Assembly (NCBI GenBank): GCA_001661245.1
Contig: KV454015.1
Span: 980,924-1,044,923, forward strand
From: Pachysolen tannophilus NRRL Y-2460
Lineage: Eukaryota
DNA length: 64,000 nucleotides
Direction: 5' to 3'
How positions within the stretch are numbered: the first letter of the stretch is position 1; every line of letters starts with the position of its first letter. The notes beneath the pieces were generated by a model that saw only the letters and a list, made by a program, of their open reading frames with translations, was not told where the DNA came from and did not search any database. This document shows positions 6,323 to 26,268 of this stretch, piece by piece. The position numbers and the translations under genes were made by a program.

Positions 6323-7606
6323 TCAGTTTGCATAATTTTCCCATCCTGATGGTCTCTTTAAGTTATTAATGGTGAAAAATTTAGGGGTACAAGAATAACC
6401 TTTCCAAGTGAAATCATCTTGTGCTTTACACATACAATGACGTTCTTGTCTTATTTGTTGATCAATTGGACAGTTATGGAATGGAACATGGAAATATCCA
6501 ACATCGTCAAAGAAATGGATTTTATCTCTTGGTAAAAATAAAGCAGCAGCTATAGAATGAACTGGTGCATCACCCCATCTTTCATAGAAGAATCCACCAG
6601 CTTTATCCAAATATTCAAAATATTTTGTATACAGTTCACTTCTCCAAAGACTTAATGAAGCAATTTCAAAATTTGACCAAAAATGACAACCATTATAAGT
6701 TAATCCTCCATCATCTGAAATAAAATCCATCATATTATTTTCTGGTAAATATTGAGGATATTCTTTCATAAAATTTCTTGTTGTTTCCCATAAAGTTGGT
6801 ATTGTTTCTTTATATTCTGGTAATGAAATTGTAAAAGAATAAGCCTTGTTATTTTCACGCATAAATTTGAAAACATCATAATCAATATCACAATAAATAT
6901 CAATACTTGGTTCAACTCTCCAATAATATTCATATTCCATCATTAATTCATGACGCCAAAAAAATCCAGATTCATATCTACACATATGTCTATATGATAT
7001 TGAATCACCATAAATGATTTTTTTTTCTCTCATTTCTTGTCTAACTCTTGCAGCTTTTTCTGTATCAATCCATTCTGGGAATGACCATTGTTCTTTTGGA
7101 ATTAAACCATATTTAGTAGTACCTGAAACTAAAGCAGTTGTTGTTTTTTTAAATTCATCACTAAAGGGTTCATCATTTAAGAAAACCCAATCATATTTAA
7201 ATTTTCTATTAAATCTATCTTCAACTTGTCTAATAGATTTAACTAATTCCCAAAGATCTTGATTTCTTGCTAATGAAACAAAAGTAGCCTTTTCTGTACC
7301 ACCTTGGAAATTTACATTTGATCCAACAAATTCTTTTTTCAAATCTCCAGGAGTAGCTGGTGATTGAAGAGAAGAATCAGCTTTATTTTGTTGTAACAGT
7401 TCTTTCAGATCATCATTTTTTGATTCAGATTTCAGTTTTTCATCCACCGATATTCCATCTTTCGAACTTGAACTTGAACTTGAACTTGTTGATGTCAGCG
7501 GTAAAATATTAGAACCTGAACTCTTGGATAAAATATATCCACATAATATTAATGCCAAGGCAAATATTACAAACCTAAGAATACGTGTATGCGATCTAGC
7601 AACCAT
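6323..7606 (-). CDS. KTR1: Alpha-1,2-mannosyltransferase, KRE2/MNT1/KTR1 family (GT15)
   Basis: N-terminal TM anchor; [31 protein letters not shown] and [17 protein letters not shown]. Exact ortholog (KRE2 vs KTR1) is uncertain. Confidence 0.92.
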
Positions 7607-8519
7607 TATCCAGCAAAAAAATTTATTTCTTTTATTTTAATTTAAGCACTCAATAAATGTGTCTTTTTTTTTTTTCAATTCTAACAAAACCTTATAACAG
7701 CGCTTACTTTGAAAATAAATAAGAAGCAAAAAAGAATAAAAGATATATTATCACTAGCAAATATTTACTTTAAATAATAATATTATTTTACTTAAATAAG
7801 TTCTAAAGTTTCAAAGAGTTTAGCACTTTTTCTTTTTTGAATTTTTTGACTTTTTTGACTTTTTTTCCTTTTTCCTCCTTTTCTCAATAAAATAAGAAAA
7901 TAAAAAAAAAAAAAAAAAATTTAAAACTTTTTAATCCAATATATTAGTTCATAAAAAAGAATTGGATTTAAAGATAACACGTCTTAAAAAAAAAAGAAAT
8001 CAATAAATAAATATATAAATATATATATAAATATATTGATTACACTATTAAATTATTTAATGGGAAACTTTCTACCCTCCTTGTTTCCTTACAGAAAGAT
8101 TGAGAGAGATTTTTTCTGTTTTTTTGTTTTTCTTTCACGGTATTAAAAAATGTTAAAAAACTAAGGGAAGTAAGAAGAGGCTTGGAAAATTTTAATATTT
8201 TGATTTGAAAAAAAGAGGACAATAATAAACGAATTTCTTTATTGCATTAGTGACACGTAAAAAGATCTAGAAGACGTAAAAATATATAAAAAGACGTTGT
8301 TTTGTGTTCAATGAGTTTATAATTTTTTATTTGCTCCGCCGCCGCTGTTGTTTTCTTCTTCTCTTTTGCTTTTTCGTTCGTCAAATTTAAATATTTTCTG
8401 CCACTTCTTTTTTTTATGTAAGTCTTGGCAGAAATTTTTTTTCGTGGTTATACTTATCGCATATCGTGAAGCTGTAGAGCTGTAGAACAGTAGAACGGTG
8501 CGTCTAGTCTTTTAGTCTT

Positions 8520-8522
<3 letters not shown>

Positions 8523-8555
<33 letters not shown>
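8523..8555. repeat. (TA)n microsatellite
   Basis: Direct reading; similar TA tracts flank many genes in the window. Confidence 0.9.
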
Positions 8556-8558
<3 letters not shown>

Positions 8559-8571
8559 TATATTTATTTAT

Positions 8572-9462
8572 TTATTTAATAATACTATCTATAACATTAT
8601 GATTTGGTTTAAAACCTTGTTCTTCTAAAAATGTTAATATTTTAATATTTTTGGAATTTACTACAAATTCCCATAAATATTCATTATTAAAAATTGATTC
8701 AAATTCATAATGATTTTTTATTAAATATTTTGATATATTAAAATTTGAATTATTTAATGAATCAATTAATGGTATTAATGATTTTAATTTCCCCATTGGA
8801 GTATTACTTGCAGATATTAAATCTGTTATTGTTGATAATGAAGTATTAAATTTAAAAGCTTCAATTAATACTTGATCAATTTTTTCAAATTTTAAATTTC
8901 TTAATGATAAAAATTTAATTAATTTAATTTTTTCAATTGTAAATGGACCTTTTTTAAATTTTTTCGGGAAATCTAAATTTTTATTAAAACCAATTTTTTT
9001 CTCTAAATATTCTTCTTCTTCTTTAATTAAATTTAAATCTTTTATTAATAATATAATATTAAATTCTTGTGAAAATTTAAATAAAATTTCATAATTAATA
9101 AATTTATAATTTAATAATTCAATATTTAATGCAAATTCTTGATTCTTATTGTTTATACAATATATATTTGATTTAATAATTTTATTTATTAAAAAATTAT
9201 TATGTTTATTAATTACATTATGAAAATGTTTATTAACCAATGGTAAATTTGAACATTCTGAATATATAAATATCTTATGAATTAATTCAACTGGTAAAAG
9301 TTCTAATATATTATAATTAAATTTTAATGAATTTTTTTTATCCTTTACATTTCTTTGTACTCGCACTCTCACCACAGAATTTTTAGAAATAAGTTTTTCT
9401 TTAGATTTGGTTTTTGGTTTTTTCTTTAACCAAGTAGCACTTCCAGGATTTAAAAACCCCAT
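8572..9462 (-). CDS. Putative F-box-like protein, about 296 aa, extremely AT-rich
   Basis: Likely ATG at 9462 (MGFLNPG); F-box-like LELLPVELIHKIFIY...LPLVNKHF; the ORF stays open for about 890 nt despite the extreme AT content. Confidence 0.6.
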   Translation of the reverse strand: MGFLNPGSATWLKKKPKTKSKEKLISKNSVVRVRVQRNVKDKKNSLKFNYNILELLPVELIHKIFIYSECSNLPLVNKHFHNVINKHNNFLINKIIKSNIYCINNKNQEFALNIELLNYKFINYEILFKFSQEFNIILLIKDLNLIKEEEEYLEKKIGFNKNLDFPKKFKKGPFTIEKIKLIKFLSLRNLKFEKIDQVLIEAFKFNTSLSTITDLISASNTPMGKLKSLIPLIDSLNNSNFNISKYLIKNHYEFESIFNNEYLWEFVVNSKNIKILTFLEEQGFKPNHNVIDSIIK

Positions 9463-10202
9463 TAAATAAATTAATATTTTAAAATAAAAAATTAATTTGT
9501 AAAAAAAAATTGTTATATAAATGTTAAAAAAGAAAATGAAAATGAAAAAAGAAAAGTGCATTGCGCATTTGCATCTAAGTAAAGCGTACACTTAATGCGC
9601 ACTTCACTCTCTCTAAGTGCGCATTACTTTTAATCATTTTTTTACACACATTTTTATTTTATTACAATTTTTTAAATCACTATTTATTATTATTATTATT
9701 ATTATTATTGATCTACAAAAGGTTTGAGATATATATCTTAACAAGAAAGAAAAAAAAAACAACCTTACCAGGATTTGATATTTATAAAATTAATTGAAGT
9801 TTGAATGGAATTAAAATTCCCATTTCGTTAAGATTTACTTTCTCCTTTTATTATCTGTCTAATTTAATTTAATAAGAGTAATAAAATAGATGATGATCTG
9901 ACGATCTTGTTAAATGAACTCTCAATAAATTTTTGATTTCTTTTAGTATTAGACTAGAAACTTGAAATTTAGTTATTATTACTAGTCTATAAGATATCTC
10001 TTTAACAAAAATTATAAGACACAATTAAACAATAAAGAAAAAAATTTAAATCTAAATCTAAAACTAAAAATTTTCAACTATTTTTTTCATATTTTAACCT
10101 AGACGAAATGTGTGATAGCAATATCATAACATTTACATATGTAAAGAAAGAAAGATATAGCCTACTTTTTGAAAACTTTTATTTTTTTTTCTTTTTTTAT
10201 TA

Positions 10203-10204
<2 letters not shown>

Positions 10205-10252
<48 letters not shown>
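10205..10252. repeat. (ATT)n trinucleotide microsatellite
   Basis: Direct reading; a shorter ATT run lies at about 9683-9709. Confidence 0.9.
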
Positions 10253-10254
<2 letters not shown>

Positions 10255-10539
10255 TTTTCTTTCCTATCTTTAACTCTTTTATTCTTTTATCTTCTAAACC
10301 CTCTATTTAAAAAAAAAGCATTTTACAATCTTATTTAATACTTTGGTTATCGTTTTTACTTTTGTATTTTAAAAAAAAAATTTCTTTTTTCTCTTTATTT
10401 TTTTTTAAGGCGTGTCAAATTATTTCCGGAGATATATTTATTTTTCAGGGGTGTACTTTTAAATATAGCCAGCCATAAATATATCTTAAAATACTTTTAT
10501 TTTTTTTCTTTTTTATATGTGGATGGATTATAATAGAGG

Positions 10540-11769
10540 ATGCTAAGGTTGAATTCTGTTAGTTCTAGGATTCGGATCCTTGTATTTGCTGCATTTTTAA
10601 TAACTATTAGTTATACTTTTACTTCGATATTTTCTTCAGAAAGGTCGTCGTTGTCTTCCTCCTCATCATCAAATTCAAATTCAAATTCTCTTGGTAATAT
10701 TGTATCAAATCTGGTTAAAAATAATCAACCATTTGGGAAAAGTGGTGTTGATAATGTTGTTTCTGATACTAGTTTAACAAATTCAAATGAATATCAAAGA
10801 GAAAATGCTACTTTTGTTACATTATGTAGAAATTCTGATCTTTGGCAAATGATGAATGCAATAAAGAGAATAGAAGATAGATTTAATAGGAAATTTAAAT
10901 ATGATTGGGTTTTTTTAAATAATGAAGAATTTAGTGATCAATTTAAAAGATTAACATCATCATTAATAAGTGGTACAGCAAAATATGGAGTGATTTCATC
11001 TGATCATTGGTCATATCCAGATTTTATTGATCAAGAAAAACTGAAAAAATCAAGACAAGAAATGGAGAAAAAAGGTATTATATATGCAGGATTAGAAAGT
11101 TATAGACATATGTGTCGTTTTAATTCTGGGTTTTTTTATAAACATCCTTTAATGCTTCCATATAAATATTATTGGCGTGTTGAACCAGATATTAATATTT
11201 TTTGTGATGTTGATTATGATTTATTTAAATATATGCGTGAAAATAATAAAACTTATGGTTTTACAATTTCAATATATGAATTTAGACTGACAATTGAAAC
11301 TTTATGGTCTACTACAAAAGAATTTTTATCAAAATATCCAAAATTTGTTGCTCAAAATAATTTAATGAATTTTATTTCTGATGATAAAGGAAATGAATAT
11401 AATTTATGTCATTTTTGGTCAAATTTTGAAATTGCTGATATGGATTTTTGGCGTAGTGAAGCATATGAAAAATATTTCCAATATTTAGATAATTCTGGAG
11501 GTTTTTTTTATGAAAGATGGGGGGATGCTCCAGTACATTCTATAGCAGCTGCTCTATTTTTATCAAAAGATAAAATTCATTTCTTTGATGATGTAGGTTA
11601 TAATCATGGAGTATATTCAATGTGTCCTATTGATGAAAATTTAAGAATGGAAAAAAAATGTTATTGTGATCCAGAACAAGATTTTACATTTAGAGGATAT
11701 TCATGTGGTAAAAGATACTATGATGTTATGAATTTAAAGAAACCTGACAATTGGGAAAAATATACTTGA
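10540..11769 (+). CDS. Second KRE2/KTR family (GT15) mannosyltransferase
   Basis: Same GT15 motifs ([36 protein letters not shown]); aligns along its length with 6323-7606. Confidence 0.92.
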   Translation: MLRLNSVSSRIRILVFAAFLITISYTFTSIFSSERSSLSSSSSSNSNSNSLGNIVSNLVKNNQPFGKSGVDNVVSDTSLTNSNEYQRENATFVTLCRNSDLWQMMNAIKRIEDRFNRKFKYDWVFLNNEEFSDQFKRLTSSLISGTAKYGVISSDHWSYPDFIDQEKLKKSRQEMEKKGIIYAGLESYRHMCRFNSGFFYKHPLMLPYKYYWRVEPDINIFCDVDYDLFKYMRENNKTYGFTISIYEFRLTIETLWSTTKEFLSKYPKFVAQNNLMNFISDDKGNEYNLCHFWSNFEIADMDFWRSEAYEKYFQYLDNSGGFFYERWGDAPVHSIAAALFLSKDKIHFFDDVGYNHGVYSMCPIDENLRMEKKCYCDPEQDFTFRGYSCGKRYYDVMNLKKPDNWEKYT

Positions 11770-12110
11770 AGGGGTTAAACCAAAAAAATCAATTTAAAAA
11801 TTATAATAATAATAAAAAAAAAAAAAAAAGAAAAGGGTTTTGTAGATTATTTGATAAGCTATATAAAATATATTGTTTACTCAATTTACTGGAGTCTATC
11901 TTGTTATATATCATATTTAAGATTTAAAAAATATTACTAGATTATTTAAACAATCATAATAATACAACGGAATTAAAGCAAATAATTATTTTTTTATTAT
12001 CTATATATATATAGATATAATAAACCTCTTAGATGAAGTTTAAAAAAGTTTATTTTACTTTTTTTATATCCGTCTTTGTTACCTCATTTACCATTAATTC
12101 TCCTTTTGTT

Positions 12111-13179
12111 TTAAAATTGCAGTTGCAGTTGCTGTTGCTGTTGTTGCTGAGAACCTACACTATGAGTAGGAATTGGCTGACTATTTAAAGGATTAGTAAA
12201 CTCGTTAAACCATGGGTGTTGTAACAGTTGTCTAGCACTAATTCTCAGTTCTGGTCTCATTTGCAATAAACCTTGTAATAAATTTAACAGTAATGGATCA
12301 ATACCTGGAATTATAGATCTTAAATCTTGAGGAATAAAAACATTGAAATTATTTTTGAAATTTGGATATTGAGAAACACCTGGCCAAGTTCTTTCGTTTG
12401 GCGTCCCCATTATTCTGAAAATTTTTAATAATTGGTCATCATTCGAATTACCAGGAAACAAAGGTTTACCAGTAAACATCTCTGCTAATATACATCCAGC
12501 CGACCACATATCTATCGAAGTTGAATAATTACGCGATCCCATAAGTACATCAGGAGCACGATACCATAAAGTAACAACCTCATTACTAAAAGTGTTCACA
12601 GGTATACCAAAGGCACGCGCAAGCCCAAAATCACCAAGCTTCAATTCACCTTTATTATTAAGTAGCAAGTTTTGAGGTTTTAAATCTCTATGTAATACTC
12701 TGTTATCATGACAAAACATAATTCCTCTTAATAGCTGAAACATTAAAGATTTAACAATTTGTGGATCTAAAGCACCACTATTATTATAACCACTACTATC
12801 CATATACTGTTTCAAATCCTGATCCATATATTCAAAAACTAAAGTTAATTTGTTTTCCGTATGAATAACATCATACAAAGTAACCACATTTTCATGCTTA
12901 AGCTCTTTCATTAATGAAATTTCTCTTATCGCAGTAGATGGTGTACCTTCTTCAGAATCTAAAGAAATCTCCTTCATAGCAACAAGTTGACCAGTACCAC
13001 GGTTTCTACCTTTATAAACAGTAGCATAGGTACCTTCACCTAGTTTCTCTAACTGTTGAAATCTAAATTGAAATAAATACCAAAAAGAAGCAAGATAGAC
13101 GTGTTAGCTATTATACTTAAAACCCAAAAATTTGATATAATATTTATATATTTTAAAATACTCACTGAGAGGATGACAT
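12111..13179 (-). CDS. PHO85: Cyclin-dependent kinase Pho85; exons 13179-13166 and 13062-12111 (321 aa)
   Basis: Spliced N-terminus [33 protein letters not shown]; intron 13165-13063 with GTGAGT donor, AGCTAAC branch and TAG acceptor. Confidence 0.96.
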
Positions 13180-13464
13180 AGCATTAAATGACTAAATACA
13201 AATAATGTTATTTCCAAACCAATAATAAACGAAAAACCCTCAATGAATTCAATACAATTATTCAAAAATTCAATTAAAAATTCAAGTATTTTGAAACCAC
13301 TTTTTTTATCTTTGCAATTTTTAAATTTTTAAATTTTTTTTTTTTTTTTTGCTTCAAAATGGAAATTTTTTTCATCTTGAGATGGTTTATAAAGAGATTT
13401 TTAATAATTTACTTTTTTATCAACTGGCTGGATCAAACGAGGTTTTGAATTAGGTTAGGTTCTC

Positions 13465-15222
13465 ATGTCTTCATCACCTATGAGTGCAGCTACTGGGAGT
13501 GATGAAACTCCCAATATTATAAATGAGGAGTCGGTATTGGGTCCAGAGTGGTGTGGTGTATTTGAATCTACTGTTGATTTTAAACAAAATCATTTTGAAG
13601 TTGCCATGTCAAATTTGATAAAGCAGCCGAATATTAACTCAACTGTGATATTGAGAACTGATATCTTAAAAGAGATAGGATATGATAATGAACTGGAAGG
13701 AAACCCGGTTGTAAAAGATTTTTTGGATAAAGAGTTGATTAATAGTAAACCTGAATTAGAGTTACTGGATGGTACTACAAATAATGAGAGCAGTGTTTTG
13801 GAAAAAAATTTGGATGATTTAGAAATTAGAGAGATTCCATGTTCATTACCACTCATACCGAAATCTAAAATTGTTAGAAGAATAATACCGAGAAATCCTT
13901 TTAAAGATTTTATTATAAATCAAACATGTCTTGTATTGACCAATAATAACGAGCAATGTACTTTGGTTGTATATATTCCTCACATTGATAACGAACAAGA
14001 TTCTCCTTTTTATTTACCTCCAGTGTATGCAGTTGGTATATTGTTCATGAAGGATAAATTATCATTACATTATTTGCCTTTTAATTATACCGTTCCAGAG
14101 CTGTTAATAAAATTGAAAAAATTAGAACCTAGTGAAAGACCAATAAGAATTGCATTTAGATTGTTACAAACAGCTAAGAAACATTCTACAGGTGTGATGA
14201 ATGGATATCAAAAAAGAGTACAGCATGATTTGGTTGTTTCAAAAGTTCTGTTTCAAGATAGATATATATATCTTAAAAAAAAATATTGCAAAGAACTTGT
14301 TGAAAATTGGTGTGAATCTACTGATCCTAAAAAACATGTTTTTGAAGATATAGCAATTGCAGCTTTTTTAATAGAATTATGGATCAAAATTTATAATAAT
14401 TCTAAAGATTCCTTTGAATTTAGAGATTTAGGGTGTGGAAATGGATTATTGGTACATATTTTAACATTGGAAGGATATAAAGGAATTGGAATTGATGCAA
14501 GAGCTAGAAAATCATGGAAAAAAGCTTATCCTGTAGAAGTTCAACAGAAGTTAAAAGAACAAGTCGTCATACCGTCGGTATTACTCAGACCCCACCCTGT
14601 TTTTTGGAAAATGAATCCACATATCCAAGATAATGGAAGAATATTTCAAATACCTATAAATAATAACAATAATCATGGCAACCTGCATAACAGAAAAAAA
14701 TCTGAGAATGGAAATGATGATATTGATGTTCCAATAGTTGTACCTGATGGTAATGTACCTATAATGGCTTATTATTCTTCAGCAAACTTGTTACAATCAC
14801 CTCAGGTAAACACCGCAGAATTTCCAAAAAACACCTTTATTATAGGAAACCACTCGGACGAATTGACCTGCTGGATTCCATTATTAGGTTATCCTTTTAT
14901 GGTTATTCCATGTTGTTCACATGCATTGAATGGTGCGAGAGTGCGGTATACCCCGTCGATGAAAAAAAGAAATATCCCAGGTAGTTCATCAACATATGCA
15001 TCATTGTGTGACAAAGTAGAACAAATTTCTGAAATGGTGGGCTGGAAAGTACAACACGAGATGTTACGAATTCCTTCGACCAGAAATATGGCAATAATAG
15101 GATATGAAAAATTTAGAGGAAATTTTTATAATATTTACGATGTATTAGCTATGGAAGGATCTGCCGAAGGTTGGGTTGAAAATTCTATGGCATTGATGAA
15201 AAGAGCGCCTAGAAATCATTAA
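13465..15222 (+). CDS. TRM44: tRNA(Ser) Um44 2'-O-methyltransferase
   Basis: ESTDPKKHVFEDIAIAAFL, DLGCGNG, GNHSDELT, PCCSH and LRIPSTRN; divergent from PHO85 as in S. cerevisiae. Confidence 0.93.
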   Translation: MSSSPMSAATGSDETPNIINEESVLGPEWCGVFESTVDFKQNHFEVAMSNLIKQPNINSTVILRTDILKEIGYDNELEGNPVVKDFLDKELINSKPELELLDGTTNNESSVLEKNLDDLEIREIPCSLPLIPKSKIVRRIIPRNPFKDFIINQTCLVLTNNNEQCTLVVYIPHIDNEQDSPFYLPPVYAVGILFMKDKLSLHYLPFNYTVPELLIKLKKLEPSERPIRIAFRLLQTAKKHSTGVMNGYQKRVQHDLVVSKVLFQDRYIYLKKKYCKELVENWCESTDPKKHVFEDIAIAAFLIELWIKIYNNSKDSFEFRDLGCGNGLLVHILTLEGYKGIGIDARARKSWKKAYPVEVQQKLKEQVVIPSVLLRPHPVFWKMNPHIQDNGRIFQIPINNNNNHGNLHNRKKSENGNDDIDVPIVVPDGNVPIMAYYSSANLLQSPQVNTAEFPKNTFIIGNHSDELTCWIPLLGYPFMVIPCCSHALNGARVRYTPSMKKRNIPGSSSTYASLCDKVEQISEMVGWKVQHEMLRIPSTRNMAIIGYEKFRGNFYNIYDVLAMEGSAEGWVENSMALMKRAPRNH

Positions 15223-15328: not shown

Positions 15329-17563
15329 TTAATTTCTACCTTTGCTTGCCACCTTCTTTCTTTTTCTTTTCAGACCAATAAGCTTCTTCACATCATCACT
15401 AACACCTGACTTATCTTCAGAAACGTTTTCAACATGGTTATTCGAATTCTTCTGGCCTTTGTTCATATTACCTTTATTATGATTTTTCTTCTTTAGTTGT
15501 GTCTTTTGCTTTTTATTAGTGAAACCTTTAACATCATTATCTTCTTCTTCATTAGAATCACCACGTCTTCTCTTAGTAGCACTTTTTTCATCGTCATTTC
15601 TATTATTTTTAGCATTCAAAATTTTATTTGATCTTCTCTTTATAACTTGTGCATTTTCAATTGCAAACTCTACAATCAATCTTCTTTTAGTTGATCCTTC
15701 TAATTGAATATATTTTTTCTCTTCCTCATCTAGCCCTTCTAGGATTTCTTCTTGAGACACTTCATGTGCATTCAACCATCTCAATCCCATTAAAGCAGAT
15801 TTATGATCTCTAAATTCCAAGAACCCATATCCTCTCGATCTACCTGCGGTACCTGAACCTTTAACCTCCATTATGATTTTAGCTTGTCTTACAACACCTT
15901 TTTTCTTGGATTTCTTACTTTCCTCACCGTTTTCGTTTAGTTCTCCAAGGAAATGCTTATATTTAGTGGATCTTATAATCTCTTCTTTAGAAAGTGGATG
16001 TCTCTTACCTTCTTTTAGTTCCTTGCTGAATTCCACAACAGCTTTTCTTCCTAATGCTTTAAGCGATTTTTCTGTTAATGCTCTTGGTAAGTTTCTGAGT
16101 GCTAATCTTGTCAAAGATACATGTAAAGTTGGATTCTTGTTCAACTGTTGAACTCTTAATTTATAGGACTTTTCTCTAAGTTCTAAATCTGTCTTTGAAA
16201 TAAAAGATGATAACTTTGAATTCAGAGTAATTCTACCTTCATTTAACAAGAACAAATTACGTTTATCTCTTTCTCCTGGTGCTTTTCCTAATATTTCTGA
16301 TCTTCTTTCTGCATTTTTTGACGCTAAACCTTCAGCAGCTTGTCTATTAACTGTAGGTGTTATAGATAGGATACGTCCTTCGTATACATATAATGGAGAG
16401 ACATCATCTGAAATCAAAATTGATGTTGCATTGGCTTCAGGGGCATTACTAAGAACTTCATTATAAGTTTCTTCTTGGTAGAATGCAACAAATGCTGTAC
16501 CTTTTGCAAGTCCTGTAGTTTTATCAATGACAGGTAACGCATATTTAACTGGTCCAAATTGTTCAAAATGTTCTTTTAACGATTCTTCAGTAGCATCATA
16601 AGGGATATTTCTAATAAAAATAGAATAATTTTCCAATTTATTCTTTGGCTCGGGCTTCTTTTGTTCATCTTCATCATTTTCAATTTCAACCTTATCGAGA
16701 TCATTCAAATCTTCTAGTTCTTGTTCAGTTGCCTCTGTGTTTTCATCCAGATTATCATCATCTTTAGAATCAGACTCCTCTTCCATATCATTTTCGGATT
16801 CACTTGAAGATTCGTCCTCACCAGCATTACCATCATCATTATCTTTTTCTTCTTCCTTAATTTCTGGTTGGTTTTCTTTTACATATTCTTCCCATTTATT
16901 TTTTTCAATTGCAAAATCAACAGCAACTTCTCTACCGTCAATTTTTAAACCTGCACTTTCCTTGATAGCCTTTTCAGCACTAGCATTTTTCTTCATAGTG
17001 ATGAATGCGAATCCACTCATTCTACCACCATTTTTTCTTGGAATTATAACATCTGTTATAGCACCATATTTACTAAAAATTCTTGATAGTTGTTCCGGTT
17101 TCCTTATTGACCACGGCAAGTTTCTCACAATTAATCTTGCTTTTCTTTTCTCTACAGCTTCACCATGTGGCTCCTTAATAGCCGGCGAGCCTGATGATGT
17201 CTTTTCATGTTTACGATCTCTTCTATTGGCAATATCAACTCTCAATAATCTACCTTTCAATTTTGTCTTTCTTGATTTCTCCAATGCAAGTTTAGCATCA
17301 TCATCTAAAGCAAGTGAAACAAACCCAAAGCCTCTAGAGTTCTTCTCTCTATCAGTAACAACAACTGCATGCTTAACTGGACAAAACTGAGAAAAGAAAT
17401 CCGACAATTCTTCAGATGTAACATCAAACGGAATAGAACGTACAAATAATGTCTTCTTATCAACTAAATCATCTTGCGACGCACTTTTTTCTTTTATTTC
17501 AGAAACTGTTGACCTCTCCCCACCATTCGCATTCACAGAAATAAATTCTTCCTCTTCTGACAT
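15329..17563 (-). CDS. NOP4: Nucleolar multi-RRM protein Nop4
   Basis: Four RRMs ([37 protein letters not shown]), acidic linker and basic tail. Confidence 0.95.
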
Positions 17564-17658
17564 CTTACAAACTCACTATATTCCTAGTAAACAACGTCTC
17601 ACTGATAAAGAGATAAATTTCTCTTCTCTACTAATAATAATAAAAAAAAAAAAAAAAG

Positions 17659-17698
17659 TGAAAAATTTTTTTTTTTTTATTATTAGCTGCAAGATGAG
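17659..17698. promoter_or_regulatory. RRPE + PAC elements (ribosome biogenesis regulon) upstream of NOP4
   Basis: TGAAAAATTTT at 17659-17669 and GATGAG at 17693-17698. Confidence 0.7.
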
Positions 17699-17992
17699 AT
17701 CCAACCCAAAGAAAAGTAGTGTACAAAAACAACAATTTGCAGCAACTTTCCTCATACAAAATTGAATTTAATGGAACATATCGATATTGAAGAAAAGGTG
17801 TTTTGATATGGAGTTTTATGTTGTCAGATAATTTAGCAATTTAAGATAATGCACCAGTAGCAGCTATTAAATTAATCAATTTCAATACTTACATGTTTTT
17901 TCATTAAAGGCCGAAAGTCAACAGACCAAAATTTCTTCACACTGCGCACATAGATAGTTTAAAATTACCGGTTTAGGAAAACAAAAAAAAAG

Positions 17993-18055
17993 TGGTGTAA
18001 GTGGTGTGAATGGTGTAGATGGTGTAGATGGTGTGAGTGGTGTGAGTGGTGTATG
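17993..18055 (+). repeat. 9-bp minisatellite (TGGTGTnnn) x7
   Basis: tggtgtaag tggtgtgaa tggtgtaga tggtgtaga tggtgtgag tggtgtgag tggtgtatg. Confidence 0.9.
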
Positions 18056-18200
18056 ATGTTTTTATTTTCTTTATTTTTTCCGTAGTGTCTGGGGTTTATA
18101 CCACGTTAACAGTAAGAAATAATAACGAACAGCGCAAATACCATTTAATACTCATGAGGTTTCATGATCTGTATTCATTTTGTTCTGGAGTCAATTCATT

Positions 18201-19760
18201 ATGTCGACTTTAAAAGAAAGGAAAGAGGCATTTGTCTCTGATCTTACTGGTGGATCTGTTTTTGAGATTTATAAAGTCACTTCTGTGACTTTAGTTTCAT
18301 ATCTGTATTATTTGGCTTTACGTGATAAGAAAGTCATAAATGAAAATTCAATTTTTGCTCAAATAGCTGATTTTTATTTGAATTGGATTTTATTATTGTT
18401 AAGTGTTACTGTTTACAGTTCAAATACGGAGAGATTGGTGATTTCACTTATACCACTCTTATTTTTATTATTTTTATGTAATCCAAGTTCAAATGATGAA
18501 AAGACAAATATAACTCGCAAACAGAAAATTGTGAAAGTAAATTTAAAAGATTTAACGTTAAAGGAGTACTTACCGTATAAGGCTTTTATAACGGTTTATA
18601 GATCTCAGATGATGGTCATAACTTGTATTGCCATACTTGCTGTGGATTTTAAAACTTTCCCAAGAAGATTTGCTAAAGTAGAAAATTGGGGTACATCGTT
18701 AATGGATTTAGGTGTAGGATCTTTTGTATTTAGTATGGGATTGGTTAGTTGTAGAAATATTCTCAAGAAAAATTTTCAAAATGAAAAGACAAATGGGATT
18801 ATTAAATTGTTTCAAAAATCTATATGGGATACTATACCGGTATTAATCTTGGGTATAATTAGACTTATTAGTGTTAAATTGATTGGATACCAAGAACATG
18901 AATCAGAATATGGAACTCATTGGAATTTTTTTTTTACATTAGGTCTATTACCTTCTTTTGTAACGTTAATATCACCATTAACAAAGATTATTCCTAAGTT
19001 TTATTTAAGTATTATCATTGGTCTTGTTTATGAGTTGACCTTAATAAACACAGAGTTACTAAAATATATATTAGTTGCTCCAAGAGTCGATTTGATCAGT
19101 TCAAATAAAGAAGGAATATTTAGTTTTATTGGTTACCTTGCTATTTTTCTTTCAGGACAAAGCTGTGGACATTACGTATTACCAAGTATTCTAACTTTGA
19201 AAAACTTTCATGGTAAAGAAATCACCAAAAATGATATTTTAAAAACAAAAAATACAAATTCAATCTTTACAGTATCACCTGTAAAAGGACTACTTATTTC
19301 AACAATTATTTATCATTCATTGTACTATGTTATCAATGTTTGTTATACGTATTCAGTTAGCAGAAAATTAGCTAATTTCTTATACATATTATGGGTATGT
19401 GCCTATAATACAACTTTCTTGTTGGGTTATTTGTACGTTTCAAATTTTTTTTGTAAAGATGACTATAAATTTGAGTATATACTGGGAAATGATGATATTG
19501 TTTCTAATGACCATGAAGAAATAGAGACACTGATTGAGAAAATTTATTTTAAAAAAACACCGAAATCATTACATTCAGTTAATGCGAATAGTTTGTTAAT
19601 TTTTTTAGTTTCCAACTTATTAACAGGACTGGTGAATATGACTATAAATACTTTGGATTGTAACAACTACTATGCAATACTAATATTGATTATTTATTGC
19701 TCTACTTTAAGTGTTCTTGCAAATTTTCTTTATAAGTTTAACATAATCATTAAATTATAG
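18201..19760 (+). CDS. GWT1: GPI inositol acyltransferase
   Basis: ATG at 18201; MSTLKERKEAFVSDLTGG, ILAVDF, FPRRFAKVENWGTSLMDLGVGSF and EYGTHWNFFFTLG. Confidence 0.96.
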   Translation: MSTLKERKEAFVSDLTGGSVFEIYKVTSVTLVSYLYYLALRDKKVINENSIFAQIADFYLNWILLLLSVTVYSSNTERLVISLIPLLFLLFLCNPSSNDEKTNITRKQKIVKVNLKDLTLKEYLPYKAFITVYRSQMMVITCIAILAVDFKTFPRRFAKVENWGTSLMDLGVGSFVFSMGLVSCRNILKKNFQNEKTNGIIKLFQKSIWDTIPVLILGIIRLISVKLIGYQEHESEYGTHWNFFFTLGLLPSFVTLISPLTKIIPKFYLSIIIGLVYELTLINTELLKYILVAPRVDLISSNKEGIFSFIGYLAIFLSGQSCGHYVLPSILTLKNFHGKEITKNDILKTKNTNSIFTVSPVKGLLISTIIYHSLYYVINVCYTYSVSRKLANFLYILWVCAYNTTFLLGYLYVSNFFCKDDYKFEYILGNDDIVSNDHEEIETLIEKIYFKKTPKSLHSVNANSLLIFLVSNLLTGLVNMTINTLDCNNYYAILILIIYCSTLSVLANFLYKFNIIIKL

Positions 19761-19915
19761 ATATTAATGTATATAGAGCTCTATCAAATTAAAATTAAAT
19801 GTATATGATAAATATATATTTATATATTCATAAATGTATTGCTTTCAGTGTGTCTGTCATATGACTAATTAACCTTTCCCTTAAAACCCAATCCCTTCAT
19901 CATCATTAATTCTCC

Positions 19916-20446
19916 TCATATACTTAAAGTGTCAAATTTATTTTCCAATTCAATTTCTACCAAAAACTTTTTAACTTCATTTTGGAGCACAGAATAATTA
20001 TTAATACCAAATTTTTTCGAAGCCTCAATAGTTAAATATTCAATATTAACTATCCTCTCATTATGATCATTCACAACAATCAATCTGTTACTCAAAAACT
20101 TTTTAAAATTATTATTTATATAAATGGGTATCAATGGAACATCCTTTATGCAATGTGATTTCTTTAACTCTTTACCCCGTGTGGAAGCCGATTGATCTAC
20201 ATCCATCAAATCATCATCCTCATGCAATTCATTAAGTATCATGAATCTCAATATTATTTCTAACTCTTCCATAGACCTGCTCAAATTGAAAGAGTGTGAA
20301 TTGAAATAATCCAAAATATCAAAATAATTTTTATTTACCCATGCCGGATTATTCAAAAAGTTTTCAATATAATATAGTTCATAAAACTTTAATGGCGCCT
20401 TTAAAGTGCTATTCAAATGAAATATGGTCGGCGTGGTCAGTGTCAT
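19916..20446 (-). CDS. Hypothetical protein, 176 aa
   Basis: ATG-initiated ORF filling the GWT1-CHL4 interval with protein-like composition; family not recognised. Confidence 0.6.
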   Translation of the reverse strand: MTLTTPTIFHLNSTLKAPLKFYELYYIENFLNNPAWVNKNYFDILDYFNSHSFNLSRSMEELEIILRFMILNELHEDDDLMDVDQSASTRGKELKKSHCIKDVPLIPIYINNNFKKFLSNRLIVVNDHNERIVNIEYLTIEASKKFGINNYSVLQNEVKKFLVEIELENKFDTLSI

Positions 20447-20610
20447 GATTAATAAATCATCAACAGATTGTTAAATATCAGATAAAGGTATTTAAAAATA
20501 AGTTTGTTTACGTAACATGCAAAAAAAAAAATAAAAATACCAAAAAAATAAAAAAATATTATTATTATGCAAACAATTAGAATGAATTGAGTTAAATTTA
20601 CCTGATTTTT

Positions 20611-22059
20611 TCAGATTAAAGAGCCGCTACCAGTTTTTTTACTATTGCTATCAAATTCCACATTAACGTACTTATTTCCATTCTCTCCAGTTAGCCATCC
20701 GGGCATCTTTACAGGATCAAGTATTCCCTTTACTGCTAATTCATGTAGACCTCCAAATACGTCATTACCGTCCATTCTTATATCAATTGAAGGACCTTCA
20801 GCTTCTCGTCCATGCTCAATTTCCGGTTCCAGTTCCAGCTCCATCTCCAGAGCTAACTCTGTTGCTGGCTGAAGGTACTTCAATTTGAAATGCACAGATT
20901 GGACTGGTGCAATTGACTTATATGGATTAATCTTGGGTTCTTCCTGTTGCTCTTCGTTATCCTCTACATCATCGTTTTCTCCTTCTCCCTCATCATCTTC
21001 GTTCTTTGCTGCAATTGATTTTTTGATTTTCTTTCTCAATGGTCTATCATCTTCAAATAATCTTTCCGATTCTAAAGGAAGTTCCGTACCTTTAAACCTT
21101 AAGTTAGCTATTTTTCTTCTCTCAATTAAAGCCATATTCTCATTTTCATTTCCCACTACAGTTGAATCATCATATATCCTACTTTTATTAACTTCAAAAT
21201 GATCAGTAGTCTTTCCAAAGGGAGAAATATCAACAGTTCCATCAGCGTAAGGTGCCCAGCTACCCAAACAATTACTAAATCTAGAATTACCTTTGAATAA
21301 AAACATTGTTTCTAATGTTTTCACAGAACTTTCATCGTCATCTTTAAACAATCTCACTTGCCGTATTGAATTTGATAAACAATTTTCAATGGACTGTAAA
21401 ACTAATGATGAGACTAAATCATTTTCATTTTCAATAGAATGAATTATATGTGGTGAATTTAATGGGATAGCCAAGAAAAAGGGCCTTCTAGAAACTATTA
21501 TATGTTTATGTCTTTTACCACCACTATAAGCCGGACTGATTGAATAATCAAATACTTGAATTCTAATTAAAATCAATGGATAATGTGGATGTTTCGAAAT
21601 ATAAATATGAGATAAATATAAGTTTGACAAGTTTTTTATTAAATCATTCAAAAACTTTTGAGAGTTCAAATTTATTATAAAATTCTTGGAGTTATGTGTA
21701 GTCTTCGCAGTCATTGAACACCAATTATTGAAATTTAAAGGTTTATCAATTAAATTTTGAATATCAATTTGTGAAATTTGTAATAAATTTAAACCTTTAG
21801 ACCAATATTCAGATAATATGTTATCAATTAATTTCCTCTTGGATTTACTACTCGATAATTTTTGTTGCATCTCTAAAATCTCTTGATACACTTCATCTGG
21901 GTTTTTCAAAGGTCTCGTTATAGTTGACCATTTACACCAAAATAGACATAAATCAAAAAGTGAATTTCTATTTAACTTCAATAATATCTTGGAAGTAACC
22001 AACGGAATTGTTTGTGGAATATAAGTATTGGACAATATCCCTCTTCTATGAGGTGCCAT
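20611..22059 (-). CDS. CHL4: Kinetochore protein Chl4 / CENP-N
   Basis: ATG at 22059; YWSKGLNLLQISQID, ILIRIQVFD, LGSWAPYADGTVDISP and GNDVFGGLHELA motifs. Confidence 0.88.
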   Translation of the reverse strand: MAPHRRGILSNTYIPQTIPLVTSKILLKLNRNSLFDLCLFWCKWSTITRPLKNPDEVYQEILEMQQKLSSSKSKRKLIDNILSEYWSKGLNLLQISQIDIQNLIDKPLNFNNWCSMTAKTTHNSKNFIINLNSQKFLNDLIKNLSNLYLSHIYISKHPHYPLILIRIQVFDYSISPAYSGGKRHKHIIVSRRPFFLAIPLNSPHIIHSIENENDLVSSLVLQSIENCLSNSIRQVRLFKDDDESSVKTLETMFLFKGNSRFSNCLGSWAPYADGTVDISPFGKTTDHFEVNKSRIYDDSTVVGNENENMALIERRKIANLRFKGTELPLESERLFEDDRPLRKKIKKSIAAKNEDDEGEGENDDVEDNEEQQEEPKINPYKSIAPVQSVHFKLKYLQPATELALEMELELEPEIEHGREAEGPSIDIRMDGNDVFGGLHELAVKGILDPVKMPGWLTGENGNKYVNVEFDSNSKKTGSGSLI

Positions 22060-22198
22060 TTTCTCCAAAAAGCTTTAACCTCCTAGCTTTATATATATAT
22101 ATCTATATATATATAATTAAAAGTATAAATGAATTTAAATAAATTTCCATATATTTAACTTTTGTTTACTATTAAATTTTTTTTCCATAATAAAAAAT

Positions 22199-22204
22199 AC
22201 GCGT
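22199..22204. promoter_or_regulatory. MCB element (ACGCGT) upstream of CHL4
   Basis: Exact ACGCGT in AT-rich DNA about 140 bp upstream of the ATG. Confidence 0.5.
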
Positions 22205-22330
22205 TTATATACACAAACAATAATACCAATAAATTCTAAGAATGTATTGATGAATTGACTACAATATATATATAGATATATATAGATATAAATAGATATA
22301 AATAAAGATATAGATATAGATTGAGGTATC

Positions 22331-23494
22331 TCATTTTGGGTTGTTTCTCTTAATTTCTTCCAAGACTTGGTCCAAAAGTTTGGGGTACCAGATTCTACTT
22401 ACATCCTGATGGCTCTTTATTCTGTTCAACAATACAAACCAACCAATAGGTTTATCAACTTGTTCATTGGGTGAGAACTGAAACCCAATTTCACCACGAC
22501 GATATTTCAGCCAGATTCTATCTCTTTCATCTCTTTCCTTTAGCAATTTCTCTGGAACTTTTAGCAGTGTCTTATAAGAACTAATATCGATTGTTTGGAA
22601 AAGAGGAATAGATAATCGATCACCTTCACCGGGACCTGGGGTAAGGACTCTATGAATTGTACTTTTACAAACACCTTGAGTTATAGCTTCTAAAGTTTGA
22701 CCCACTGCAACCACTAAGGTGTCCTGTAAAGGTGGAACTTTTATCCATTCACCTGTATAACTTTCAACTTCCAATGAAGTATGATCTGTTGGTTGGAAAA
22801 TATAAGTAATGAAATCAGAATCTCTATGTTCACCAACTCCTTGATTGGTTTGAACTTTTGCCGTTTTATCTGATAATTTTTCTTTGATTATATCGTTTTT
22901 CAAATTAGGGTCAAGTTTATTAAAATCTGGATATTTTATAATCTTAAGTTTAACTTGTTGTCTTGGTTTTTGGAAAAATTTATCAAAAGAACCTTTTGGT
23001 AATTCTAAACTTTCTTCAATCAAATTAATAAACCATATACTAAAATCTGACATGCTATTCATATAATTTTCGAAAACAGGTCTAAATTTTGGAACTAATG
23101 AAGAATCTGGCCATAAATTTGGACCTTCAATATTTTTCCATAATTCATCATCATTTTGAACAACAGGTTCAGAAAGTTCCGTTGCTAAATCTATTTGTTC
23201 TCTCCAATCAACATTTCCAGCAGTAATCTCGTTTCCTAATTTTGTATAACCCAAGAAATGTTTTGATTTAGTCATTTCAACTTTCAATTTTTCTTCAAGT
23301 GGTAAATTGAAAAACTCATTAGATTCATTAACAACATCTCCAAAAAGCAGATTATCAACAGGAATATTCTTGACATAGAAAAACCCAATATCTAATAAAA
23401 ACTTCTTCAAATCCAGCAAAAAAATCGGTTTCGTAGAATCCGCAAAGGCTAAATTTAAATCTAATATCGGTAGTAAATCAGAACTAATTGACAT
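22331..23494 (-). CDS. 2OG/Fe(II) dioxygenase, isopenicillin N synthase-like superfamily
   Basis: LPILDL, GFFYVKN, DWREQID, GPNLWP, HRD...IHRV and RLSIPLF (R-x-S). Confidence 0.9.
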   Translation of the reverse strand: MSISSDLLPILDLNLAFADSTKPIFLLDLKKFLLDIGFFYVKNIPVDNLLFGDVVNESNEFFNLPLEEKLKVEMTKSKHFLGYTKLGNEITAGNVDWREQIDLATELSEPVVQNDDELWKNIEGPNLWPDSSLVPKFRPVFENYMNSMSDFSIWFINLIEESLELPKGSFDKFFQKPRQQVKLKIIKYPDFNKLDPNLKNDIIKEKLSDKTAKVQTNQGVGEHRDSDFITYIFQPTDHTSLEVESYTGEWIKVPPLQDTLVVAVGQTLEAITQGVCKSTIHRVLTPGPGEGDRLSIPLFQTIDISSYKTLLKVPEKLLKERDERDRIWLKYRRGEIGFQFSPNEQVDKPIGWFVLLNRIKSHQDVSRIWYPKLLDQVLEEIKRNNPK

Positions 23495-23752
23495 ATTTGA
23501 ACAACAAAATCTTCCAAGTTTTTAATTAAAAACTAACAAAATTACAATTAATCAATCATGTCATGCTACTCTACCTATCTTTATATATAGTAGAAACAAT
23601 TCACTCTCTCTCTCACTGTGGACCTTTTCTTTCATCTTATCATCATTGCGTAATAATTGATGACACCTTGAAATCGCCCCAATACAACATAATAACCCAA
23701 AGAAGCCATCAAATAAATAATAACTAATTAATTATACATATATTTATATAAT

Positions 23753-23787
<35 letters not shown>

Positions 23788-23821
23788 CTTGATAAATAGT
23801 GAAGTAATATTGTGATAAAGA

Positions 23822-24571
23822 ATGATGTCTCAGGGAGATCAGCTATTGCAGCAATTAAGACAGTATGATGAATTAAAACAGCAGAATAATAATAATAGTA
23901 CTTATAGTTTTTTCCAGCAACAGCCTCAAGCAATTGGTCATTATATACCCAACCAACATAATCCAATCCAAAATGATGAAAGGTCTGATGATGACTATAA
24001 GAAAATAGATAATGAAGAAGTTCAGGGGAAAATAGATGTGCAATATACTTCTTTGAAGATTTTGAATAATAAACCTAAATATGTACCACCAATTAATTTT
24101 GCTCTTGTTGAAGATGGAATATATAGATCAGGACATCCACAACCTATAAATTTCCCGTTTTTATCAAATTTGAAACTTAAGACTATAATATATTTAGGAG
24201 ATAAAGAAGATAATTATGATTATTATAAGTGGATAAAGCAACAAGGAATTCATTTCCATTATTTAAAAATGGAAACTTCAGTTGCTCCTTTAATATTTAA
24301 TGATCCAGAAGTAATAAAAGCTGCGTTAAACTTGATAATAAATATCGAGAATTATCCAATATTGATTCACTCGAATAAGGGGAAACATAGAATAGGTGTC
24401 TTAGTAGGTGTTATGAGGAAATTACTACAAGGATGGTGTTTGAGTGGAACATTTGATGAATATGATAAATTTTCCGGAGGAAAAGGTGAAGGTGATTTGG
24501 AATTTATTGAAATGTTTGAAACACCATTACAAATTGATGATTCAAAGAAACCGGGGTTTGTAAGATTATAG
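23822..24571 (+). CDS. OCA2: Oca2 pseudophosphatase (Siw14/Oca family)
   Basis: PPINF, IYRSGHP, LKTIIYLGDK and YPILIHSNKGKHRIG (catalytic Cys replaced by Ser), RKLLQGW. Confidence 0.85.
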   Translation: MMSQGDQLLQQLRQYDELKQQNNNNSTYSFFQQQPQAIGHYIPNQHNPIQNDERSDDDYKKIDNEEVQGKIDVQYTSLKILNNKPKYVPPINFALVEDGIYRSGHPQPINFPFLSNLKLKTIIYLGDKEDNYDYYKWIKQQGIHFHYLKMETSVAPLIFNDPEVIKAALNLIINIENYPILIHSNKGKHRIGVLVGVMRKLLQGWCLSGTFDEYDKFSGGKGEGDLEFIEMFETPLQIDDSKKPGFVRL

Positions 24572-24705
24572 GAGTTATAGTTACATATATATATATATAT
24601 CTTTTTGGATAACTGTACTCTATATATATTCATAAAATTAACTGAAAGCTATGAATTTCTAACAATAATATACAAAACTAAACTTTAAAACTTCTAATCT
24701 ATATC

Positions 24706-26268
24706 CTAACTAACATCAATAACCGTTGAACCAGTTATAACTGCATGTCCATCATTCCCGTCCGATGAAACATTATCTTGTACATGTATTTCTTGATTTC
24801 CTCTTTCATTATTATCTTCACTGGTTTCATCACTATTCTTGCCATGATTAAAATGTGCAGCATTTTTCTCCTTCATTACATCGTTTGCTGCACCATATTG
24901 GTTTGCAACATTGAAGGCTTCTGAATCTGCTGGAGGTGGTACACCCCACGATAAGAAATCTCTTCTAACTTCAACGTAATCATATGCAAATTCTCCAACT
25001 TGATCTTCATCAAGTCCTCTTTCCTCCAGCTCTTCAGAAACTCTTAGTTTCAAAAAAGGTATTCTCTCCATAATAAAACATATTATAGTTGTAACCACTG
25101 TACTATAACCAATGGCAAATAATATATAACATATTTGTTTGTAAATTGATCTATAATCATGAGTTATAAAACCACCTTCAGCATCTGTTTGACCATCATA
25201 ACCAATGATATCCGATGAGCCAAAGAAAGCATTGAACAATAATCCAACAACACCTGCAAGCCCATGTTCAGCCAAGATATCCAAAGAGTCATCAACTTTA
25301 AGTAAAAATTTAATCTTTGTCGAATAATTACAAATGATACCTGCAATAACACCTTGGATCACAGATCCATATAAAGTGATACAACCAGAAGAAGGAGTAG
25401 CTGCAACTAAGCCTGAAATACATCCAGAACATAAACCAACAGCACTCCATTTTTTTTCAATTCTCCAATCTAAAATTACCCAAGTTAATGCTCCAAAGGC
25501 AGCAGATAAATTTGTATTCATTATCAGATAAACAACTCTTAAAGAAGGGTAAATACATGAAAACCCATTAAAACCTAACCAACCAAAATATAAAAGCATG
25601 GTACCTAAGGTGACCATAGATACATTATGTGGTTTAAAATTTCCAATTCTTCTTTCTTTTCTTTTTCCCAAGAATGCAGAATAAACAAATCCACTTACAC
25701 CTGACAGAATTTCCACTGGACCACCACCAGCATAATCTAATACACCCCATTTAGCAGCCCAACCAGAATTTGTATTCCATACTGCACAAGCTATTGGACA
25801 ATAAACCAAAGTTGCCCATATAAAACAGAAAATCATTGATGGAATTAATCTTCCTCTTTCACATGTTGCTCCTACAATAATAGCTAAAGTAACACATAAA
25901 AACATCATTTGAAAAATGGCAAATGCCAATTCTGGATAATCTTCACCTCCTAAAACATTTTGAAACCCAAAATTATGTAAATTACCAATAAATCCATTCG
26001 TCGCAGTACTTGAAAAAGCCAACGAATAACCCCAAAAATACCATTGAAACATTCCAACAAATCCTGCCAATATACATACTTGAATTAATGATAATGCTGA
26101 AGATCTTCTTGCTAAACCTGAGTATAAATATCCTAAAGCCGGTATCATTATGAAAACCATTGCACAACCAACAGCTAATAATATAATAGCTCCATCATTA
26201 TAAGTTTCTTCCCATACTTTTCTCTTTGCTAGTATTTCTACTAAAATTGAAGTTTTACTAGTAGACAT
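24706..26268 (-). CDS. MEP1: Ammonium permease, Mep1/Mep3 type
   Basis: ATG at 26268; YSGLARR, QWYFWGYSLAFS, DYAGGGPVE, GLVAATP and GLDEDQVGEFAYDYVEVRRD. Confidence 0.92.
   Translation of the reverse strand: MSTSKTSILVEILAKRKVWEETYNDGAIILLAVGCAMVFIMIPALGYLYSGLARRSSALSLIQVCILAGFVGMFQWYFWGYSLAFSSTATNGFIGNLHNFGFQNVLGGEDYPELAFAIFQMMFLCVTLAIIVGATCERGRLIPSMIFCFIWATLVYCPIACAVWNTNSGWAAKWGVLDYAGGGPVEILSGVSGFVYSAFLGKRKERRIGNFKPHNVSMVTLGTMLLYFGWLGFNGFSCIYPSLRVVYLIMNTNLSAAFGALTWVILDWRIEKKWSAVGLCSGCISGLVAATPSSGCITLYGSVIQGVIAGIICNYSTKIKFLLKVDDSLDILAEHGLAGVVGLLFNAFFGSSDIIGYDGQTDAEGGFITHDYRSIYKQICYILFAIGYSTVVTTIICFIMERIPFLKLRVSEELEERGLDEDQVGEFAYDYVEVRRDFLSWGVPPPADSEAFNVANQYGAANDVMKEKNAAHFNHGKNSDETSEDNNERGNQEIHVQDNVSSDGNDGHAVITGSTVIDVS

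Follow-up and report, generated by a model that had tools for sequence, protein, structure and literature searches.

Which amino acid does the codon CTG specify in the 64-kb stretch of yeast DNA shown in part above (hereafter the window)? The question was raised by a sequence-only reading of part of this DNA, in which CTG, a leucine codon in the standard code, was taken to be decoded as alanine on the evidence of ten listed codons. All ten (10/10) are in frame, with the coordinates and neighboring residues given for them, and they represent 10 of the 36 in-frame CTGs in the range that was read; most are sites that favor alanine, and the list is therefore a favorable selection. Considering the window as a whole, we confirm that it carries a signal of non-standard CTG decoding, a pattern that is more than chance. 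We propose, with high confidence, that the window derives from a budding yeast that reads CUG as alanine, a member of the order Alaninales (Pachysolen, Nakazawaea and Peterozyma), and that its nuclear code is NCBI table 26. CUG would be read by an alanine-identity tRNA with the anticodon CAG, as in the published work on such yeasts, and each of the 83 in-frame CTGs in the 35 open reading frames (ORFs) described below would encode alanine if the peptide-level decoding reported there holds here. The assignment of CTG to alanine is thus supported, and our confidence in it rests on lineage and public annotation as much as on window statistics.

CTG in the window does not behave as leucine

The ORFs were defined by an ATG start, the standard code and a length of at least 120 residues, which gave 35 usable ORFs with 15,518 codons in total. 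CTG occurs 83 times in this set (5.35 per 1000 codons) and is found at least once in 26 of the 35 ORFs (74%), with an average of 2.4 CTGs per ORF. We scored the 26 CTG-bearing ORFs against Pfam under NCBI tables 1, 12 and 26, which read CTG as leucine, serine and alanine, respectively, and summed the scores over 18 domain hits. Reading the 37 CTG sites that fall within domain envelopes as alanine instead of leucine raised the total by 30.3 bits (+0.82 bits per site), and reading them as serine raised it by 24.9 bits. Deliberate misreadings of other codons, made as controls in 16 of the 26 ORFs, had the opposite effect. Specifically, reading the true leucine codon CTA as alanine cost 28.2 bits over 28 sites (-1.01 bits per site), reading GCA as serine instead of alanine cost 57.9 bits over 96 sites (-0.60 bits per site), and reading TCA as alanine instead of serine cost 79.9 bits over 153 sites (-0.52 bits per site). 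When the hits are taken one by one, alanine is ahead of leucine in 14, leucine is ahead in 3, and 1 is a tie.

Deep alignments point the same way. We built our own profiles for Bro1 (119 homologues), Gwt1 (119), the KTR family (138, used for both paralogues, KTR-a and KTR-b) and an MFS transporter (91), leaving the query out of each. The KTR set keeps 138 of 150 representatives, 12 having been dropped for lengths outside 300-700 residues, and the MFS set keeps 91 of the 100 homologues returned, after removal of the 2 that ranked weakest and of 7 with fewer than 400 residues. These profiles cover 5 of the 26 CTG-bearing ORFs and 23 CTG sites, 15 of which lie on profile positions; Bro1, Gwt1 and KTR were picked for having the most CTG sites within Pfam domains, and the MFS transporter was picked as a case in which Pfam favors leucine. 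We also tallied the commonest residue of the profile columns, by class of query codon and for columns with at least 50% occupancy. Leucine is the commonest residue in 2 of the 12 CTG columns, alanine in 4, serine in none and some other residue in 6 (mean frequencies of Ala, Ser and Leu, 0.18, 0.08 and 0.18), whereas in the 252 columns under the five other leucine codons it is commonest in 160 (Ala 6, Ser 6, other 80; means 0.03, 0.03 and 0.49). The 98 columns under GCN alanine codons are led by alanine in 57 cases, serine in 11, leucine in 2 and other residues in 28 (means 0.45, 0.13 and 0.03), and the 205 columns under the six serine codons by serine in 84, alanine in 20, leucine in 10 and others in 91 (means 0.12, 0.30 and 0.05).

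In 20,000 resamples of 15 leucine-codon sites, the Ala-minus-Leu sum observed at CTG (+15.3 bits, with the hmmbuild setting --eset 15) was never reached. Solved structures give a similar result. Taking the best alignment for each of 8 proteins, which together contain 28 CTG sites, we find 18 sites aligned and 10 outside the alignments, and leucine stands opposite CTG in none of the 18. Together, these data show that CTG in the window does not behave as leucine. For the standard code to hold here, the odd columns would have to be the product of chance or fast evolution. Two Gwt1 sites and one MFS site, which do lie in Leu or Ile/Leu columns, favor that account, as do the Pfam families MFS_1, GWT1 and Peptidase_S10, which score best with leucine (over alanine by 2.4, 0.6 and 0.1 bits); set against the totals, the column counts, the resampling and the structures, they leave it with a negligible probability, and sequence statistics already refute a leucine reading.

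Alanine weighed against serine

Alanine is the best single assignment of CTG in the window, and its margin over serine is modest. Scoring each query codon against its own column under three hmmbuild weightings places alanine first of 20 amino acids at CTG under two of the weightings and second under the third, over 15 sites. With --eset 15, CTG scores 5.2 bits for Ala, -1.7 for Gln, -3.1 for Ser, -6.9 for Thr and -10.1 for Leu, and the same procedure assigns 53 of 55 other codons their standard amino acid; with --enone, the scores are 3.9 for Ala, -8.1 for Ser and -15.2 for Leu, and 52 of 53 other codons are assigned as standard. Under the default weighting, CTG scores 5.9 for Gln, 4.3 for Ala, -0.1 for Ser and -8.2 for Leu, with the standard amino acid returned for 51 of 55 other codons. 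Because the default weighting flattens the profiles and misassigns 4 of the 55 control codons, we rely on the two sharper weightings, under which alanine exceeds serine by 8.2 bits (--eset 15) to 12.0 bits.

A serine reading (table 12), in which CUG would be decoded by a Ser-type tRNA(CAG) as in Serinales and Ascoideales, is the alternative that these numbers bear on most directly. Alanine leads serine in our own profiles and, by 5.4 bits, in the Pfam total. The Ala-minus-Ser sum observed at CTG (+8.2 bits) was reached in none of 20,000 resamples of 15 serine-codon sites (--eset 15); serine is commonest at none of the 12 CTG columns; and CTG is found in membrane-helix columns in which serine occurs once among 119 or 91 homologues. 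Alanine's leads over serine in individual Pfam hits (Pkinase +3.4, MFS_1 +2.2, KTR-a +1.9, KTR-b +1.7 and GWT1 +1.6 bits) are larger than those of serine, which are small and come at variable polar sites. For Pho85, the Pkinase score is 217.8 with leucine, 215.9 with serine and 219.3 with alanine, and for the dioxygenase, whose residues 27 and 49 both count toward DIOX_N, the scores are 96.0, 101.5 and 101.3 in the same order.

Several observations pull the other way and temper the case for alanine. Serine scores above alanine in 10 of the 18 Pfam hits, with alanine above in 6 and 2 ties, and in BRO1 serine leads by 1.8 bits; the Bro1 columns are polar and variable, and the seven Bro1 sites summed lean slightly toward serine. 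Per site, the Ala-minus-Ser difference at CTG (+0.15 bits) falls between those of GCA (+0.60) and TCA (-0.52). Glutamine stands ahead of alanine under the default weighting. The partners of the 18 aligned sites in solved structures (E 4, A 3, S 3, P 2, with D, M, T, Y, N and R once each) exclude leucine and tie alanine with serine. Two Gwt1 sites, residues 35 and 477, lie in leucine columns, and residue 232 of the MFS transporter lies in an Ile/Leu column that gives no simple alanine picture. When 15 GCN sites are resampled, an Ala-minus-Ser sum as low as the observed one, or lower, arises in only 2% of cases, and an equally low Ala-minus-Leu sum in 0.01%. No tRNA gene was found in the 64 kb by ARAGORN or by Rfam at gathering thresholds. 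The public annotation that we turn to below reflects an assumption of its depositors and not the behavior of ribosomes. Finally, the research group that later described CUG-Ala decoding in Pachysolen had in 2014 placed this yeast among the CUG-Ser species by alignments alone, according to PMC4986446; evidence of this kind can therefore mislead even specialists, and the weak separation of alanine from serine in the window agrees with that early call.

Taken together with the lineage and the public records considered below, we regard serine decoding as very unlikely. The resampling indicates that CTG sites are unlike leucine or serine sites and form an atypical, weakly constrained subset of alanine sites. 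The sequence-only reading is supported in taking CTG in the window as alanine, and it overstated how clearly the window itself distinguishes alanine from serine, given the 5.4-bit total, the 10 of 18 hits that prefer serine and the 3-to-3 tie in structures. In 64 kb alone, alignment evidence rejects leucine easily and separates alanine from serine weakly.

Lineage, public records and known CUG codes

We placed the window by a maximum-likelihood tree of Bro1 and Gwt1 (15 taxa, 1257 columns, LG+G4), with order labels taken from PMC11182611 and PMC5951914 as far as these sources give them. In this tree the sister group of the window consists of six Pichiales (ultrafast bootstrap support 100), and the Pichiales without the window have a support of 64. 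Three Serinales stand apart in a clade of their own (support 93), which argues against a serine code of the Serinales type. The nearest named relatives, all Pichiales, are 42 to 53% identical in Bro1 and Gwt1, and the best Ascoidea match for Gwt1, at 43% identity, ranks below the Pichiales matches. The taxa in the tree include no Ascoideales species and no named Alaninales sequence; membership of Alaninales is inferred from position alone. The lineage lies at the place expected for the CUG-Ala order Alaninales and outside Serinales.

Public protein records supply a second line of support. The table-26 translations of KTR-a, KTR-b, Mep, the dioxygenase and the Rab GDP-dissociation inhibitor (GDI) match public NCBI/UniRef entries exactly in 5 of 5 cases, and no table-1 or table-12 translation of these five is present in the public protein collection (0/5). 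For serine specifically, both proteins tried (2/2) are absent as table-12 translations and present as table-26 ones. As stored publicly, Bro1, Gwt1 and the MFS transporter have alanine at 15 of 15 CTG sites. Annotation of this genome, as deposited, thus already applies CUG = Ala, in line with the table-26 reading.

That the phenomenon itself is not new, as the sequence-only reading had acknowledged, is borne out by the literature. According to PMC4937558, Pachysolen tannophilus reads CUG as alanine with a tRNA(CAG) that carries G3:U70 and A73, and liquid chromatography-tandem mass spectrometry found alanine at 97.2% of 907 fully supported CUG positions, the non-alanine remainder being reported as no commoner than for AUG. 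The same source counts 16,824 CUG codons across 5288 proteins and puts the share of affected genes at 80%. PMC5951914 describes an Ala clade of Pachysolen, Nakazawaea and Peterozyma and treats its separation from the Leu2 clade (Komagataella, Kuraishia, Ogataea and Pichia) as a deep division in the family Pichiaceae. The Ala clade is named Alaninales in PMC11182611, with CUG-Ala as a diagnostic character, and the NCBI taxonomy agrees.

The window resembles this order and table 26 in every respect compared: CTG avoids leucine columns, alanine is the best assignment, the lineage is sister to Pichiales, and the public proteins of the genome have alanine at CTG. Its 2.4 CTGs per ORF and 74% of ORFs affected compare with 3.2 per protein and 80% in P. 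tannophilus (PMC4937558), and its G+C content is likewise low (29%). At the level of sequence, no difference from Alaninales was found in the window. Yeasts with CUG-Ser codes (table 12; Serinales such as Candida and Debaryomyces, and Ascoideales) are alike in that CTG has moved off leucine and is rare and mostly at weakly conserved polar sites. They are unlike the window in the amino acid inserted and in the source tRNA, and the window stands apart from Serinales with CTG sites that do not resemble serine-codon sites. The Pichiales (Komagataella, Kuraishia, Ogataea and Brettanomyces) contain the nearest named relatives of the window, but as the Leu2 clade they read CUG as leucine (PMC5951914), whereas CTG sites in the window are not Leu-like.

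Individual sites, their surroundings and the gene content of the window

The CTG sites for which homologous residues are available are collected in the table. The sites that appear to be specific for alanine are KTR-b 168, which is the strongest in the window, KTR-a 325, Pho85 251 and MFS 457. The reciprocal evidence claimed for the two KTR paralogues holds, each of two CTGs facing an alanine in the other copy. So does the claim that one Pho85 CTG occupies the alanine position of cyclin-dependent kinases; the Pho85 alignments shown are to yeast Pho85 (2pk9), three near-identical chains of a "cell division control protein 2 homolog" and one CDK5. Pho85 residues 244 and 230, for their part, appear uninformative as to the identity of CTG. 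Two expectations stated for the ammonium transporter Mep were not borne out by the homologues compared, which are Mep2 and not Mep1 or Mep3. At codon 25705, for which leucine was expected, two Mep2 structures have threonine and asparagine; at codon 25525, for which alanine was given from Mep1/3, they have serine (5aex) and alanine (the other chains shown). The doubt expressed about Gwt1 19629, where leucine was expected, was well placed, as this is the most leucine-conserved column to hold a CTG (80% Leu). In Bro1, leucine falls outside the eight commonest symbols listed for 4 of the 5 columns given.

Table. In-frame CTG codons of the window and the residues found at the homologous positions; counts are of homologues in our own profiles, the Pho85 ORF is the larger part of exon 2 and its residues are numbered from the ORF start, and a single coordinate is given for the Bro1 codons.
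CTG position	Strand	Protein (ORF)	Residue	Residues at the homologous position
2495..2497	-	MFS transporter (2303-3865)	457	A 24, L 14, I 11, V 10, S 4 of 91
2903..2905	-	MFS transporter	321	Q 44, L 14, K 14, A 1 of 91
3170..3172	-	MFS transporter	232	I 30, L 28, A 11, S 1 of 91
6632..6634	-	KTR-a (6323-7606)	325	A 49, E 19, Q 17 of 138; Ala in KTR-b and Kre2 (1s4n); two Ktr4 structures have Gln and Pro
11041..11043	+	KTR-b (10540-11769)	168	A 94, S 2 of 138; Ala in KTR-a
11287..11289	+	KTR-b	250	Variable: E 30, A 17, K 17, S 8 of 138; Glu in KTR-a
12225..12227	-	Pho85 (12111-12977)	251	Ala in 5/5 alignments shown (three distinct kinases)
12246..12248	-	Pho85	244	Met, Gln, Gln in three distinct solved kinases
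12288..12290	-	Pho85	230	Asp (gapped region), Gly, Gly in three kinases
18303..18305	+	Gwt1 (18201-19760)	35	Membrane helix: L 70, F 25, A 6, S 1 of 119
19629..19631	+	Gwt1	477	Membrane helix: L 95, V 12, A 2, S 1 of 119
23414..23416	-	2OG-Fe(II) dioxygenase (22331-23494)	27	Ala in 9ovh, Glu in thymine dioxygenase
25027..25029	-	Mep (24706-26268)	414	Glu in both Mep2 structures
25525..25527	-	Mep	248	Ser in 5aex Mep2, Ala in other Mep2 chains shown
25705..25707	-	Mep	188	Thr in 5aex Mep2, Asn in other Mep2 chains shown
30179	+	Bro1 (29696-32254)	162	T 32, S 30, A 12 of 119
30596	+	Bro1	301	E 58 of 119
30653	+	Bro1	320	A 42, S 32 of 119
30668	+	Bro1	325	P 39, S 26, A 23, L 2 of 119
31757	+	Bro1	688	K 37, R 29, S 26 of 119
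39717..39719	-	Rab GDP-dissociation inhibitor (38814-40157)	147	Ser in yeast Gdi1 chains (3cph, 1ukv), Ala in 1gnd GDI
58069..58071	-	Carboxypeptidase Y (57607-59274)	402	Pro in carboxypeptidase Y (1wpx)

The unusual character of these sites is also seen in their surroundings. Taken over all 81 scorable in-frame CTG sites, the four flanking residues to the left and the four to the right have a mean Kyte-Doolittle hydropathy of -0.83, compared with -0.22 around alanine codons, -0.34 around serine codons and -0.39 around leucine codons, so that CTG surroundings are more hydrophilic than those of all three (Mann-Whitney p of 5e-5, 5e-4 and 3e-3, respectively). This measure does not separate alanine from serine; it marks CTG sites as an unusual subset.

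The codon table offers a possible origin for this pattern. CTG is one base change from the leucine codons TTG, CTA, CTC and CTT and from GTG, ATG, CCG, CAG and CGG, and two base changes from every alanine codon. Once CTG had come to mean alanine, new CTGs would be expected to arise mostly by replacing leucine and other residues at tolerant sites. Because CTG lies near leucine codons and near no alanine codon, CTGs should then be found mostly at weakly constrained sites, with a minority in Leu-type hydrophobic columns. Such an origin would fit the hydrophilic surroundings, the low column conservation and the surplus of columns of Leu type (2 of 12 at CTG vs 2 of 98 at GCN sites).

It is also conceivable that this surplus, which concerns membrane-helix columns dominated by leucine and includes the 80% Leu column of Gwt1 477, is more than a mutational trace, with some leucine still inserted at CUG, or with selection keeping CTG where either residue works, but we consider this very improbable. 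A stronger form of the idea, that CUG is decoded mainly as alanine with a meaningful share of leucine, would resemble the Ser/Leu mixture of Ascoidea asiatica and has in that yeast a precedent for dual CUG decoding (PMC6041473). The Leu-type columns are what such a mixture would predict, yet mutation accounts for them more simply, CTG being a single step from four leucine codons, and the peptide data reported for P. tannophilus in PMC4937558, with their overwhelming share of alanine and a remainder at the level of AUG, speak against it. Mixed decoding, which is in any case beyond what sequence data can show, seems to us very improbable indeed.

CTGs also cluster in low-complexity stretches. 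Two lie inside the C-terminal poly-Gln tail of Pho85 (12120-12128), CTG being one step from the glutamine codon CAG, and three fall within seven codons in an acidic loop of Chl4 (20830-20850). The PHO85 gene, on the minus strand, has a short exon 1 of 14 bases with its ATG at 13179-13177 and then an intron of about 103 bases, the two together covering 13063-13179. The intron carries GTGAGT at 13165-13160 and a TAG that ends at 13063, as well as the branch-point-like TAGCTAAC. With exon 1 spliced on, the ORF track is seen to be without the first ~34 residues of the protein. The KTR paralogues lie on opposite strands, 3 kb apart, with a 329-residue ORF (8572-9561) between them, and their catalytic domains align without gaps across about 320 residues.

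By Pfam, most ORFs of the window are ordinary yeast housekeeping genes. Those named include the two KTR mannosyltransferases, Pho85, Trm44-like and Nop4-like proteins, Gwt1 and Chl4, as well as the 2OG dioxygenase, Mep, Bro1, GDI, Mtr4 and carboxypeptidase Y. The MFS transporter has an unusual distribution of homologues for a budding-yeast gene: the nearest named ones are pantothenate/vitamin H transporter-like proteins of Pezizomycotina and Basidiomycota at 45-49% identity, one relative reaches 65%, and budding-yeast matches are far weaker, at about 30%. The assembly of the window contains three N runs, at 32409 (1 base), 32519-33205 (687 bases) and 49553-49854 (302 bases). The second cuts a Rho/Ras-type GTPase gene, the readable C-terminal part of which (33482-33895) corresponds to positions 76-159 of the Pfam Ras profile.

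If CTG is alanine, translations of this DNA under the standard or the bacterial table are wrong at CTG codons, and the sequence-only reading was correct that the ORF track mistranslates them, with leucine standing in for alanine 83 times across 26 of the 35 ORFs. The route to this conclusion also carries a caution, for in the 2014 assignment of Pachysolen (PMC4986446) specialists fell into the same trap between alanine and serine that the window presents. As the reassignment is already known and has already been applied to this genome, the finding is of practical use and not scientifically new. Reading the code in this way not only indicates how the proteins of the window should be translated, it also places the source of the DNA in a small and well-defined order of yeasts.

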